From: Dehalococcoidia bacterium
Lineage (GTDB): Bacteria > Chloroflexota > Dehalococcoidia > Lucifugimonadales > UBA3495
Length of the DNA: 64,000 nucleotides
NCBI GenBank assembly: GCA_965216065.1
Contig: CBDCFB010000002.1
Coordinates: 756-64,755 of the forward strand
Direction of reading: 5' to 3'
The notes under the pieces were generated by a model that was not told the origin of the DNA, did no database searches, and was given only the letters and a program-made list of their open reading frames with translations. Shown piece after piece: positions 49,899 to 54,898 of the stretch (position 1 is its first letter; every line of letters starts with the position of its first letter). A program made the translations under genes and the position numbers.

Positions 49899-51491
49899 CT
49901 ACGGCGTGGGAGCCGGGCCCAGAACGCGGTAGCCGAGGTTTTCATCAGTACGATCGGCCGTCGGGAGAACCTCAACAACCACGCTGAACAGCCCAACCAC
50001 ATCCCCATTTTCGTCGAAGCTGTAGTCGTCGCCGATGGCCCCTGTCCAGGTAATGCTGTTCAGACAGTCTCGAAAGCCGTCCGCGTCCTGGTCGTTGTTG
50101 GTCTGCTTGAGGCACTCGGCGGCGATGTAAACGTCGTCGTAGGCGGAGCCCTGGAACCAAGGCAGTGGCGCCACATCGCCGTAGCGTGACTTGAAGCTCG
50201 TTAGGAAATCCTTGCCGGCGGGACTGGCCAGGTCGAGGTTGAAAATTACGGCCTTGAGACCTGTGGCGGCGTCGCCGGCGATGCCGAGGGCATCGGGGAG
50301 CGTGGGTACGATCTCGGAGTAGATCGGGCCGTCGTACCCCAGTTCGCGGGCCTGCTTGATTATGGTGCCGCCAGAGGCCTCGCCCTGTGCGGCTAAGAGG
50401 AGCGCGTCGGGGTTGTTCTCGAACAGCTTTGTCAGCTGGCTTCGGAAGTCGATTACGTCGGAGGAGTAGCCTTCCGCGGCCACCACAGAGCCTCCCAGCT
50501 TCTCGAACTGCGCGACGGCGGTGCGGCGCGTACCCTCGGCATAGTCGGTCGACTCGGTTATGGTGGCGATGTTGCGCCTTCCGTCGACCCAGAGGGTGTT
50601 GCCCATGTCGATGCCCACCCGGAGGTCATTGATAGCTGTTCGGAAGATGTAGTCGCCCGCAGAGGCGATGTCAGGGCTTGTGGCGGATGCGGAAAGAAGG
50701 ACGACACCGTCTCTCTCAGCGAGTGGGGCGGCTCCGAGCATTGAGCCGCTGCACGTCGTGCCCAAGATAATCTTGACGCCGTCCACATCGGTCAGCTTGT
50801 TGTAGGCGGTGATGGCATCCTGGGCCCTGCACTTGGAGTCCTCGACGATGAGTTTCAGCTCACGGCCGTTGATACCTCCGGCCGCGTTTATCTCCTCTAC
50901 GGCAAGCAGCTTGGCCTGATGTATGGGATTGCCGTAGGACTCGGCGACGCCGGTGAGGGCATCCATCGCGCCGATTGTGAAGAAACTCACGGCCGGCGTG
51001 GGTCGCGGCGTGGGCGTCGGCCGCGGAGTTGATGTAGGTCGCGGGGTCGGCGTGGGTCGCGGGGTCAGCGTGGGCGCGGGCGTAGGCGTGGGGTACGGTG
51101 TTGCAGTGGGATACGGGGTAGCTGTAGGCCATGGCGTGTTCGTCGGCCACGGCGTTGCAGTGGGATACGGGGTAACTGTAGGCCGTGGCGTGTTCGTCGG
51201 CCCTGGAGTCGAGGTGGGCCATGGGGCGTTTGTTGGCCGGGGCGTTGCTGTGGGCATTGGCGTAAGAATTGGGGTGGAGGTGGTCAAGGCCGCAGCGACT
51301 TTTGCCTCCACTGTGGCGTCAAGCGCCGTCTCTGCCTCACGGGTGCCGCGGGTACCCGCCTCCACCGTCGCCGGAACGTCAGCCGTCGGTCGGGATGCTG
51401 TTTGTGTGTCCGCAGTAAACGGTGCCTCGCTGGTACAGGCAACAGCCGTCAGGCCGGAGATTACCAAACCAATCAGGATGATAATTCTCAT
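49899..51491 (-). CDS. Lipoprotein: shared leader cassette + Pro/Thr linker + type-1 periplasmic binding (LivK-like) domain
   Basis: [19 protein letters not shown] lipobox, leader, about 100 aa of PT repeats, then [27 protein letters not shown]... typical of branched-chain amino-acid ABC substrate-binding proteins. Confidence 0.85.
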
Positions 51492-51603
51492 TTTCTTTCC
51501 CCAGTGCCGCGATAATTTTCAATCGTCCCTGTCGATTCAACGGTCCCCGGCGCTGACCGGGGCGAACTCCCTGGCTGGAGGCCTGGCCAAGAGGCCCCAG
51601 TCG

Positions 51604-52273
51604 ATGAGGGGTATAAGCCGACGACCCTTCCGGGCGGCGGCAGTGCTGACTGTCCGGGGCTGCCGCCCCCACCATGGAAAGGCGCTCCAGCAGACCTCCG
51701 GCTTGGGCCGGCATGGCTCGGCACCCGGCGGGCGGCGTACGTTGCGGAGCGCACAGAGGACACGGGGCCTGGCCTCCTGTGCGCTCCACCGAGAATTTAT
51801 CTGGGCGATAGGCCGGGTGCCCCGTTGCCTTACCGGCAGAATGGAAGGCCACCCAGGGCTGACTGATCCATATCCAATTGGACCGACAAACTGCTTGGCA
51901 CGCATCCGGTCAACTGGTTCACGTCGAGCCGCAGCGATGTCAGGTTTTCGAGGTTGCCCAACTCCGGCGGTATCTCCCCGCTCAACTGGTTCTCGTCGAG
52001 GCTCAATATTTCTATGTTGGCGAGTCTGCCCAACCGCGGCGGTATGTCCCCGCTCAGTAGGTTCCCGCTGAGGGCCAGCCATTCCAGGTTGGTGAGGTCG
52101 CCCAACTCCGGCGGTATCTCCCCGCTCAACTGGTTATGCCTGAGGGCCAGGCTCTCCAGGTTGGCGAGGTTGCCCAACTGCAGCGGTATCTCCCCGCTCA
52201 GCTGGTTCTCGTAAAGCTCCAAGTACTCCAGGCTGGCGAGGTTACCCAACTGCGGCGGTATCTCCCCGCTCAA
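51604..52273. repeat. 670-bp direct repeat, copy 1 (copy 2 at 53617..54286)
   Basis: Offset is exactly 2013 nt. All six-frame ORF translations across the two copies are identical (for example 51878..52060 = 53891..54073 and 51954..52214 = 53967..54227). Confidence 0.9.
51830..52269 (-). pseudogene. Orphan 3' fragment of an LRR lipoprotein gene (duplicate of the 3' end of 53843..54898)
   Basis: Encodes [29 protein letters not shown]...[17 protein letters not shown], identical to the C-terminus of the downstream-copy gene. It has no start of its own. It begins right at the stop of gene 52270..53490. Confidence 0.8.
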
Positions 52274-53490: not shown

Positions 53491-53616
53491 TTTCTATTCC
53501 CCAGTGCCGCGATAATTTTCAATCGTCCCTATCTACAGGTTCAGCGCCGGGGGCGCTGACCGAGGCGAACTCCCCGGCAGGAGGCCTGGCCAAGAGGCCC
53601 CAGTCGGTGGGCTGGA

Positions 53617-54286
53617 ATGAGGGGTATAAGCCGACGACCCTTCCGGGCGGCGGCAGTGCTGACTGTCCGGGGCTGCCGCCCCCACCATGGAAAGGCGCTC
53701 CAGCAGACCTCGGGCTTGGGCCGGCATGGCTCGGCACCCGGCGGGCGGCGTACGTTGCGGAGCGCACAGAGGACACGGGGCCTGGCCTCCTGTGCGCTCC
53801 ACCGAGAATTTATCTGGGCGATAGGCCGGGTGCCCCGTTGCCTTACCGGCAGAATGGAAGGCCACCCAGGGCTGACTGATCCATATCCAATTGGACCGAC
53901 AAACTGCTTGGCACGCATCCGGTCAACTGGTTCACGTCGAGCCGCAGCGATGTCAGGTTTTCGAGGTTGCCCAACTCCGGCGGTATCTCCCCGCTCAACT
54001 GGTTCTCGTCGAGGCTCAATATTTCTATGTTGGCGAGTCTGCCCAACCGCGGCGGTATGTCCCCGCTCAGTAGGTTCCCGCTGAGGGCCAGCCATTCCAG
54101 GTTGGTGAGGTCGCCCAACTCCGGCGGTATCTCCCCGCTCAACTGGTTATGCCTGAGGGCCAGGCTCTCCAGGTTGGCGAGGTTGCCCAACTGCAGCGGT
54201 ATCTCCCCGCTCAGCTGGTTCTCGTAAAGCTCCAAGTACTCCAGGCTGGCGAGGTTACCCAACTGCGGCGGTATCTCCCCGCTCAA
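53617..54286. repeat. 670-bp direct repeat, copy 2
   Basis: See 51604..52273. Identity ends at 52273/54286. Confidence 0.9.
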
Positions 54287-54898
54287 CTGGTTCTCGCCGA
54301 GGTCCAGGCTCTCCAAGTTGGCGAGGTTGCCCAACTCCGGCGGTATCCCCCCGCTCAACTGGTTATTCCTGAGTTGCAGGCTCTCCAAGCTGGCGAGGTT
54401 GCCCAACTCCGGCGGTATCTCCCCGCTCAACTGGTTATTCCAGAGGGCCAGTTCGATGACACGGCTGTTGTCGTCAGTGGTGACGCCGTACCACTCGCCA
54501 ATCGGCAACTCGCTCAGCCAGTTATTGCTTTCTTCCCAATTCAGGCCGCCGGTGGCGTCATAGAAATCGACCAGCGCTTCCCGGTCCGTTTCGGGCGAGG
54601 TCTGCGCCATCATCGGCGCGGCGGTGGCCACAGGTGCGGGTGCGGTGGTGGCCCTGGGAGCGGAGGTGGAGCTGGTGGTCAGGGTTGCTGCGACTTTTGC
54701 CTCCACTGTGGCGTCAATCGCCGCCTCTGCCTCCGTCTCTGCCTCACGGGTGCCGCGGATACCTGCCTCCACCGTCGCCGGAACGTCAGCCGTCGGTCGG
54801 GATGCTGCTTGTGTGTCCGCAGTAGAGGGTGCCTCGCTGGAGCAGGCAACAGCTGTCAGGCCGGAGATTACCAGAACAATCAGGATGATAATTCTCAT
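53843..54898 (-). CDS. Lipoprotein: shared leader cassette + plant-type LRR domain (variant C)
   Basis: ATG at 54898. The same signal and leader, a short linker, an LRR N-cap (DREALVDFYDATGGLNW) and about 9 [12 protein letters not shown] repeats. Confidence 0.85.
   Translation of the reverse strand: MRIIILIVLVISGLTAVACSSEAPSTADTQAASRPTADVPATVEAGIRGTREAETEAEAAIDATVEAKVAATLTTSSTSAPRATTAPAPVATAAPMMAQTSPETDREALVDFYDATGGLNWEESNNWLSELPIGEWYGVTTDDNSRVIELALWNNQLSGEIPPELGNLASLESLQLRNNQLSGGIPPELGNLANLESLDLGENQLSGEIPPQLGNLASLEYLELYENQLSGEIPLQLGNLANLESLALRHNQLSGEIPPELGDLTNLEWLALSGNLLSGDIPPRLGRLANIEILSLDENQLSGEIPPELGNLENLTSLRLDVNQLTGCVPSSLSVQLDMDQSALGGLPFCR

Follow-up and report, generated by a model that had tools for sequence, protein, structure and literature searches.

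The erp genes of Borrelia burgdorferi have their promoter/operator, leader peptide and first mature residues in common; the rest of the open reading frame (ORF) is of independent origin and recombining (PMC10016077). The lpl genes of S. aureus are tandem lipoprotein paralogues in one island (Tsuru & Kobayashi 2008; PMC2568036). The vpma, vsp and vsa genes of Mycoplasma are clustered lipoprotein genes with family-conserved 5' untranslated regions (5'UTRs) and signal peptides, and a recombinase is found nearby (PMC2268961). Here we describe a tandem array of putative lipoprotein genes in a 64,000-nt stretch of DNA (hereafter the window) from an uncultured Dehalococcoidia bacterium of the Chloroflexota (assembly GCA_965216065.1, contig CBDCFB010000002.1, positions 756 to 64,755). 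Three genes, numbered 1 to 3, begin with one 5' module and end in unrelated payload domains. They lie beside a two-component system (TCS) consisting of a HisKA_3 histidine kinase and a LuxR-type response regulator, and related loci were designated L001, L002 and so on. The comparisons suggest that the array is likely to be a recombination-shuffled lipoprotein family, located at the variable end of a conserved TCS locus in a narrow uncultured Dehalococcoidia clade.

Shared 5' module and payload domains

A sequence-only reading of the window had described three minus-strand ORFs, each opening with MRIIILI(G/V) and followed by a common leader. All three were recovered (Table 1). The leader is present in each of them and is about 55 aa long. 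The leaders are 83-90% identical at the amino acid level, and a tblastn search identified these three copies and no fourth in the window. The nucleotide alignment of the 5' regions that the reading had called for gave pairwise identities of 91-93% over the 222 nt of signal and leader; synonymous divergence (pS) was 0.11-0.14 and nonsynonymous divergence (pN) was 0.06-0.07, with a pN/pS of ~0.4-0.5. A Pro/Thr linker had been assigned to all three genes; its long form (~95 aa) is found only in genes 1 and 2, and gene 3 contains a short Ala/Pro/Thr linker.

The signal satisfies the lipobox rule, with Arg2, a 15-residue hydrophobic core, and T-A-V-A before Cys19. The rule was of the PROSITE PS51257 type: a basic n-region, an uncharged h-region, a Cys within the first 15-35 residues, and small residues at -1/-3. 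Cys19 is at least 90% conserved across the leader family. By this rule, genes 1 to 3 are predicted to encode bacterial lipoprotein precursors, which might be lipidated and displayed on the surface. Genes for the lipoprotein-processing enzymes Lgt and LspA do not lie in the window.

The payloads are unrelated, as had been claimed: Pfam assigned Peripla_BP_6 to gene 1, and LRR_1, LRR_8 and LRR_4 arrays of leucine-rich repeats (LRR) to genes 2 and 3. The C-terminal domain of gene 1 is a Peripla_BP_6/ANF_receptor type I solute-binding domain (PF13458, E 4e-53; the score of 181.8 bits exceeds the cutoff of 31.7, and the match covers profile positions 3-330 of 343). For the LRR payloads, the Pfam matches above threshold included LRR_1 at 94.9 and 60.2 bits and LRR_8 at 65 and 62 bits. 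Their repeat period is 72 nt (24 residues), and the pattern LxxLxLxxNxLSGxIPxxLG is of the plant-specific type. Structure prediction with AlphaFold2, run on the single sequence only, gave a solenoid for the gene 3 LRR (pLDDT >90). The predicted leader structure, also proposed as a check, is one low-confidence helix at residues 41-73 (pLDDT 50-59); the rest of the leader is disordered. The nearest homologues of the gene 2 payload are only 49-58% identical. In the same comparison (protein P0198), one match at 42% identity was deposited as the sponge Geodia barretti on a 16.5-kb contig, which is probably symbiont DNA. An exact look-up of window genes 1 and 2 in public assemblies found neither on record.

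Chimeric structure and discordant divergence of gene 1

The gene 1 payload has thousands of homologues. The closest >100 are 80-93% identical and 386-425 aa long. These native solute-binding proteins (SBPs) carry their own signal, MSWKKIVLLCLP..LVLAC-GS..DEPF(T/V)IGAMDALTG, which differs from the array signal. Nucleotides 1-513 of gene 1 are 86.9% identical to the 5' module of the RCC1 gene in locus L010, including the first RCC1 codons (P-x-V-S-x-F); nucleotides 515-1592 are 87.3% identical, from codon 28, to the native SBP gene of L011. The two parts meet at ...GTGAGTTTC|TTCACAATCGGC..., with a breakpoint at nt 513/515 and a 3-nt microhomology, TTC. On these alignments, gene 1 is a chimera in which a leader/Pro-Thr/RCC1-type 5' part was joined to a captured SBP. 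The native signal peptide and short linker of the SBP were replaced by the array leader and the Pro/Thr stalk. An identical leader-SBP junction is present in L010, assembled at 85x coverage from an independent sample. This shows that the fusion is real and older than the split of the window and L010 lineages. No ABC permease or ATPase genes adjoin gene 1 in the window or the native copy at L011; the partners may be elsewhere.

Comparison with the L010 orthologue revealed a sharp difference in divergence within gene 1. The payload shows 4 mismatches in 1080 nt (99.6% identical), and the next 140 nt show 2. The signal, leader and linker show 32 mismatches in 477 aligned nt and a 36-nt indel. Identity is 83% in the upstream block, and the DNA farther upstream is unrelated. 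The 5' module thus diverges (6.7%) like the flanking TCS genes (6.5%), and the payload is the outlier. The mismatch counts of module and payload differ significantly (Fisher p = 3e-13), with a ~20-fold difference in divergence; at the flank rate of 6.5%, the probability of 4 or fewer payload mismatches is 3e-26. Because the divergence steps from 6.7% to 0.4% in the distal linker, a recombination breakpoint can be placed there (gene 1 nt ~386-564). The near-identical tract extends to the IS110 fragment at 49557.

Related loci and leader trees

In every related locus retrieved, the leader genes adjoin a divergent HisKA_3/LuxR TCS. The syntenic TCS was found in L001, L002, L004-L008, L010 and L012, with 76-94% nucleotide identity to window positions 55529-57451. 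There are 1-3 tandem leader copies per locus, and tandem copies occur in L001, L002, L007 and L010. The order of genes after the TCS in the window is relic, LRR, Pro/Thr-LRR, LRR fragment, and Pro/Thr-SBP. In L010 (TCS 92.7% identical) it is relic, Pro/Thr-RCC1, tail relic, Pro/Thr-SBP, and IS110. L012, an independent contig that is 95% identical over window positions 54947-53492, has gene 3 straight after the TCS, then another cassette. L001 contains a PPC-like/LRR gene, a tail relic, and a gene 3 orthologue; L002 contains Pro/Thr-RCC1, PPC-like/RCC1, and a copy cut by an insertion sequence (IS). The payloads are SBP_bac_3 in L004 and L005, LRR and PPC-like in L007, and RCC1 in L008. The cut copy of L002 (10001-11834) is a leader gene interrupted past its Pro/Thr linker by a DDE transposase insertion, which again points to turnover in these arrays.

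Among the PPC-like payload genes, those of L001, L002 and L007 are orthologous to one another (payload pS 0.27-0.39). However, their leaders are closer to the other leaders of their own genomes (7-13% distance) than to those of their orthologues (15-22%), and they cluster with the own-genome paralogues at bootstrap values of 95-99.95%.

Direct repeat and LRR gene fragment

A direct repeat of 1.33 kb (91.9% identity, blastn) spans much of the array. On the coding strand it contains the last 147 codons of the gene 3 LRR, the 3' intergenic region, the upstream block, the signal, the leader and the entire Pro/Thr linker. The DNA common to genes 1 and 2 thus far exceeds the ~60 nt of upstream sequence noted before. 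The repeat includes a 670-nt block whose two copies differ by one mismatch; outside this block the identity is 71-94%. An initial description of the duplicate as 674 nt at 100% was dropped, as direct comparison gives 670 nt with one mismatch. Since there is one difference in 670 nt against ~8% divergence of the repeat, the block is younger than its flanks. As judged from this comparison, it is the record of a recent duplication or conversion event.

The block includes a 3' fragment of gene 3, which sits between genes 2 and 1 and matches part of gene 3 at 99.85% identity. Gene 2 ends in a stop codon donated by this adjoining fragment, read in another frame; the junction of gene 2 and the fragment has no flanking homology. 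The repeated unit crosses gene boundaries, both in the window repeat and in the tail/intergenic/leader unit of the relatives: it runs from the 3' part of one ORF through the spacer into the 5' part of the following ORF. A hairpin with a perfect 15-bp stem (GGAGCGCACAGGAGG...CCTCTGTGCGCTCC) is located at 53759-53800, ~45 nt past the gene 3 stop, and is duplicated with the block (Table 1). It has no T-run, and is probably a terminator-like element.

Shared upstream block

The shared DNA upstream of the ATG, previously taken as about 60 nt, is alignable across all three genes to ~-85. A 39-nt core occurs exactly three times in the window, against 0 occurrences expected by chance. Each of genes 1 to 3 retains its own upstream block, Shine-Dalgarno (SD)-like site and ATG; only the 444-nt LRR fragment is without a block. 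The proximal ~50 nt before the ATG are conserved in 15/15 copies from 9 loci. Most of these copies are conserved to ~-190 and into the WDFG..QYPTL tail of the preceding ORF. The block may have promoter activity, and might form a common regulatory region for the array members.

Hand-picked hexamers (TTGAAC/CTGAAC ... GAAWRT) were tried as a promoter; they are weak, their spacing differs in gene 1, and no promoter is claimed on them. A structured RNA or riboswitch in the upstream or intergenic DNA was not supported by RNAalifold on 10 upstream regions (covariation term +0.81). An Rfam search of this DNA at E<=1 gave only a spurious miRNA match (mir-7094), which falls on the hairpin described above.

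Table 1. Positions of the array genes, their parts, repeats and neighbouring features in the window
Feature	Position	Strand	Description and basis
Gene 1	49899-51491	minus	530 aa; chimera by alignment; ORF and Pfam Peripla_BP_6
Gene 1 signal	51435-51491	minus	
Gene 1 leader	51270-51434	minus	
Gene 1 linker	50979-51269	minus	Pro/Thr linker and first RCC1-type codons
Gene 1 junction	50977-50979	minus	
Gene 1 payload	49899-50978	minus	Type I solute-binding
Gene 2	52270-53490	minus	406 aa; ORF and Pfam LRR_8, LRR_1
Gene 2 signal	53434-53490	minus	
Gene 2 leader	53269-53433	minus	
Gene 2 linker	52975-53268	minus	Pro/Thr
Gene 2 payload	52273-52974	minus	LRR
Gene 2 stop codon	52270-52272	minus	
Gene 3	53843-54898	minus	351 aa; ORF and Pfam LRR_1 4e-29, LRR_4
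Gene 3 signal	54842-54898	minus	
Gene 3 leader	54665-54841	minus	12-nt insert
Gene 3 linker	~54599-54664	minus	Ala/Pro/Thr
Gene 3 payload		minus	LRR N-cap, then 24-residue LRR repeats
Upstream block, gene 3	54899-54982	minus	Putative promoter/5'UTR; SD-like GGGGAA
Upstream block, gene 2	53491-53574	minus	Equivalent block; blastn and alignment
Upstream block, gene 1	51492-51571	minus	Equivalent block; blastn and alignment
1.33-kb direct repeat	50994-52291 and 52975-54299		blastn
670-nt block, copy I	51604-52273	minus	LRR tail and 3' intergenic region with hairpin 51746-51787
670-nt block, copy II	53617-54286	minus	One mismatch to copy I
Gene 3 3' fragment	51830-52273	minus	Promoterless; last 147 codons and stop; out of frame with gene 2; ORF 51830-52609
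Relic of first array gene	54983-55349	minus	Lipobox signal ~55275-55349; tail ...WDFGNASQYPTLGHGF* 55058-55132
HisKA_3 histidine kinase	55529-56781	plus	Split over two frames; Pfam
LuxR-type response regulator	56753-57451	plus	Pfam
IS110-family transposase 3' fragment	49557-49754	plus	NCBIfam transpos_IS110, profile positions 293-343 of 343
Small serine recombinase	48192-48938		Resolvase-family; ~1 kb beyond gene 1, past the IS110 fragment
Antisense ORFs	50953-52071, 52406-53515	plus	Others at L002 4366-5787 (minus) and L010 7580-9028 (minus)

Relic, two-component system and array borders

The decayed fourth lipoprotein gene that the sequence-only reading had placed next to the cluster is a genuine relic. 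Three-frame translation found its signal, MMSKSIELGLPGVGALLLAVLLAGC, in frame 1 and its C-terminal tail, ...DGLWDFGNASQYPTLGHGF*, in another frame, followed by intergenic DNA typical of the family. Signal and tail belong to one intact gene of ~1060 aa in L006. A GLUG-type assignment of the WDFG..QYPTL tail was dropped, as the intact L006 protein has no Pfam match. The relic is kept in L008 and L010, and is absent from L012. At L012 3121-3132, the TCS joins the gene 3 upstream block at ~-49, and a 390-nt relic segment (window 54948-55337) is missing; the join coincides with the start of the minimal conserved upstream block.

The HisKA_3/LuxR TCS is transcribed divergently from the array and may control it. 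In the window the kinase lies in overlapping frames (55529-56206 and 55630-56781); it is intact in L010 (482 aa) and L001 (411 aa). A cytidine/guanine-deaminase-like gene (47123-47567, minus) likewise runs on in a second frame. A second, paralogous HisKA_3/LuxR pair (40763-42046 and 42066-42767) is divergent from a secreted surface protein at 39215-40300, which has a cadherin domain, an ordinary signal peptide and no leader. This genome may repeatedly pair a TCS with a surface protein. In addition, a 1470-aa ORF (32802-37214, minus), with an N-terminal signal peptide, internal repeats and no Pfam match at 1e-4, appears to encode a large, uncharacterised secreted protein.

The distal end of the array is marked by the IS110 fragment. 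This stretch matches L010 at 97% identity, and L010 contains a full IS110, inserted at the position that corresponds to 49754. Two zinc-ribbon-like small ORFs are also found at this border (window 48134-49754). In L010 (1353-2695, 11229-12716), a 93%-identical recombinase segment lies on the opposite side of the TCS. The position of the recombinase and the IS110 insertion in L010 imply that the whole TCS-plus-array block was rearranged relative to its surroundings.

Distribution of the leader

When one genome per GTDB species was scanned, the leader was detected at a single locus in each of three Dehalococcoidia metagenome-assembled genomes (MAGs), and a distant variant in one marine Chloroflexota MAG. 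A generic export tag on lipoproteins throughout the genome, which the sequence-only reading had named as one finding that would overturn it, is ruled against by this single locus per genome in the three GTDB genomes and by the other signal used in native SBPs. HMMER identified 62 leader matches at E<=1e-3 among 1.84 billion representative proteins, 18 of them close. A word-index search gave nothing but short, broken ORFs, which came from low-coverage long-read assemblies. In the JGI metagenomes, no exact match to a conserved 26-nt leader pattern was found, only relatives of 35-38% amino acid identity. Pfam and NCBIfam gave no match on the N-terminal 75-170 residues, in line with the earlier view that the leader is no named domain.

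Behind the lipobox, the distant relatives have a core in common, PTPD(I/V)-x-ATVEAGI-x-AT-x-EAE-x-SI(E/D)ATV-x-ARV, which is sometimes in tandem and is followed by a Pro/Thr linker. Even at 35-40% identity, proteins of distantly related marine Chloroflexota retain this core. In proteins P0049, P0057 and P0065, and in loci L009 and L013-L022, TPD(I/V)-x-ATVEA-x-V is found as 2-6 tandem copies after the lipobox. This motif is apparently a short helical repeat without annotation, and the window leader would be one lineage-specific form of it.

Long antisense ORFs, rich in Gly, Val and Arg, lie over the Pro/Thr linkers and repeat payloads (Table 1). Public gene calls chose the antisense strand or an internal Met; for example, P0074 (355 aa) starts at MDALTG. 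The leader family is near-invisible in protein databases because of such calls.

Recombination and alternative explanations

The sequence-only reading had proposed cassette exchange or gene conversion of surface proteins. The gene 1 chimera, the discordant divergence, the grouping of leaders by genome and the 670-nt duplicate bear this out as recombination on an evolutionary timescale. They do not extend to programmed machinery, as the copies are co-oriented, no inverted repeats link them, and the recombinase is non-syntenic. The shared module comprises ~50-190 nt of upstream DNA, a Sec/lipobox signal with Cys19 and the ~55-aa leader; the long version adds the ~95-aa Pro/Thr linker. The second half of the leader is probably a single Ala/Glu/Thr-rich helix, and the order of parts might be lipid anchor, flexible segment, rigid helix and Pro/Thr stalk. 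The module may lipid-anchor the protein in the cytoplasmic membrane, the stalk may keep the C-terminal binding domain clear of the cell, and one regulatory region may be conferred on all array members. The payloads are ligand- or protein-binding folds: LRR, RCC1 propeller, PPC-like repeats and solute-binding domains. In the proposed mechanism, the directly repeated module would provide portable homology for unequal crossing-over, gene conversion and inter-lineage homologous recombination, and rare microhomology joins would import new payloads. Modules and payloads would thereby be duplicated, deleted, homogenised and re-assorted, and close relatives would have different arrays because of this recombination. 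The two readable payload junctions resemble microhomology or illegitimate joins, not recombinase sites. The turnover of the array presumably has a selective reason.

Several points weigh against this reading. The discordance of gene 1 can be read in two ways, either as a recently imported payload or as a converted 5' module. For window gene 3 and its L001 orthologue, the own-genome grouping of leaders is not significant (bootstrap 76%). Most of the related loci come from low-coverage (2-5x) assemblies, and the 670-nt duplicate in the window is known from the assembly only. The split kinase and deaminase genes are either pseudogenes or indel errors in the window assembly; such errors, if real, would also affect the reading of the relic and of the end frame of gene 2. 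For the upstream block, which the sequence-only reading had called a promoter, a sigma-70 consensus scan gave no site, and its role as a promoter is putative. Expression, lipidation and localisation of the array proteins are all predictions from sequence alone.

Plain paralogy without exchange might give a similar array. The genes would derive from an ancestral tandem duplication, with the N-terminus held by purifying selection on an export/anchor tag and the payloads diverged or replaced long ago. Selection on the peptide is indeed real, since even distant marine Chloroflexota retain the leader core PTPD-x-ATVEAG...EAE..I(D/E)ATV.A.V, and the pN/pS of the leader agrees with it. However, the pS between window paralogues (0.11-0.14; a noisy value, as the short leader has ~63 synonymous sites) is not above that of the TCS in the closest genomes (0.12-0.20), and is below that of leaders on payload orthologues (0.17-0.32). 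The upstream non-coding DNA is common too, the leaders cluster by genome, divergence steps from 6.7% to 0.4% within gene 1, and the native SBP family has a different signal. Paralogy of this kind is thus quite improbable. An assembly artefact would mean that the metagenome assembler mis-joined strain variants or paralogues, and so produced both the tandem similarity and the fragment. The apparent frameshifts in the kinase and deaminase, the low-coverage long-read contigs of the public relatives, and the 670-nt near-identical repeat, a classic site of mis-joining, would fit such an error. Yet the leader-SBP fusion has the same junction in an independent 85x contig from another sample; gene 3, the intergenic region and a further cassette are also found in L012; tandem leader genes recur in L001, L002, L007 and L010; and the gene 2/fragment junction offers no flanking homology for an assembler to collapse. 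An artefact is unlikely for the family and for gene 1, and there is hardly any chance that it explains the array as a whole.

Programmed antigenic or phase variation would require a recombinase, such as the serine recombinase at 48192-48938, to switch payloads at the shared 5' sites, as in Mycoplasma vpma/vsp/vsa and shufflons. A resolvase-family gene does lie ~1 kb beyond gene 1, the promoterless LRR fragment is readable as a silent cassette, the vpma genes have 72-nt recombination sites to which the shared 5' non-coding block is similar (PMC2268961), and the array content varies among close relatives. However, genes 1 to 3 and the fragment all point the same way, and none of the three genes is without an upstream block and ATG of its own. 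Between 44 and 60 kb, a search for inverted repeats gave nothing beyond the duplicated palindromic hairpin and some chance matches, none of which links the copies. The fragment is 99.85% identical to part of gene 3 and adds no diversity; the recombinase lies past the IS110 fragment, is on the other side of the TCS in L010, and is absent within 10 kb in L001, L004 and L005. Moreover, the gene 1 junction falls on a 3-nt microhomology within the coding sequence, and it has become fixed in two lineages. Programmed switching is very unlikely on this evidence. A dedicated diversity-generating expression array is a speculative and rather unlikely idea: the module would be kept near-identical as a recombination substrate, the TCS would control the upstream block, and frequent payload turnover would create surface heterogeneity within the population. 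A possible setting would be a host-associated Dehalococcoidia, possibly a sponge symbiont, with eukaryote-like LRR and RCC1 domains. The eukaryote-like payloads and the LRR homologue labelled Geodia barretti give a hint, from sequence, of a host-associated lifestyle. If true, such an array would be a previously unrecognised variation system in Chloroflexota.

Comparison with known systems

Recombination of modules and payloads over evolutionary time, the explanation that we favour, gives the locus several meanings. It is a clean worked example of an in-frame junction at which a module has replaced the native signal of a conserved transporter binding protein, and it also holds a module/payload recombination breakpoint between two natural lineages. 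It further defines a motif, as yet without annotation, at the N-terminus of marine Chloroflexota lipoproteins, consisting of the lipobox, the PTPD-x-ATVEA...ATVEAKV helix and the Pro/Thr stalk. It also reveals an annotation problem, as gene callers miss or truncate leader genes because of the long antisense ORFs over the Pro/Thr linker. If the payloads (LRR, RCC1, cadherin-like neighbours) mediate binding to hosts or particles, the array would be a candidate determinant of niche or host specificity.

The SBP payload of gene 1 is similar to the LivK/Peripla_BP_6 SBPs of Chloroflexota, being 80-93% identical to this family of 386-425-aa lipoproteins. It differs from them in its location in a surface-protein array, and in carrying the array leader and Pro/Thr stalk instead of the native signal. 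The window array and the Mycoplasma vpma/vsp/vsa genes both have a conserved 5' block and signal, and a recombinase gene in the vicinity. However, the Mycoplasma systems have one promoter that is inverted by a tyrosine recombinase between oppositely oriented genes; the window genes are all on the minus strand, with their own upstream blocks, no inverted sites, and a non-syntenic serine recombinase. The two systems are not homologous in sequence. The S. aureus lpl genes are similar in their boundary-spanning unit; in the window relatives, the leader moves as one unit with the WDFG..QYPTL tail and the intergenic region. Homology among the lpl proteins extends over their full length, and they recombine at a central conserved region, whereas the window payloads are unrelated and the conserved part is the 5' module. 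The window genes have no sequence homology to lpl, and there is no Lpl (DUF576) Pfam match in the window.

The erp genes (OspE/F-related, 'upstream homology box') have the same architecture, in that upstream DNA, signal and first mature residues are conserved in all members of the window array. The ORF remainders are unrelated Pfam folds, with a mapped chimera and a divergence step at the module/payload boundary. There is no sequence homology between the two systems, and the window has no Pfam or NCBIfam match to any Borrelia family. The erp genes form one locus per cp32 prophage plasmid, whereas the window and its relatives have chromosomal tandem arrays beside a TCS. The window module is much longer, with a ~55-aa helical leader and with or without the ~95-aa Pro/Thr stalk; its payloads can be assigned to known folds (LRR, RCC1, SBP), one of them a captured transporter binding protein; and its host is a monoderm-type Chloroflexota, not a spirochaete pathogen. 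The relationship to erp is one of analogy, not membership. By this analogy, the window array is an independent instance of a known design in a new phylum, convergent with erp and lpl, with a longer shared module and captured payloads. The design of one promoter/leader and many payloads, known from a few pathogens, would thus have arisen independently in uncultured, non-pathogenic Chloroflexota.

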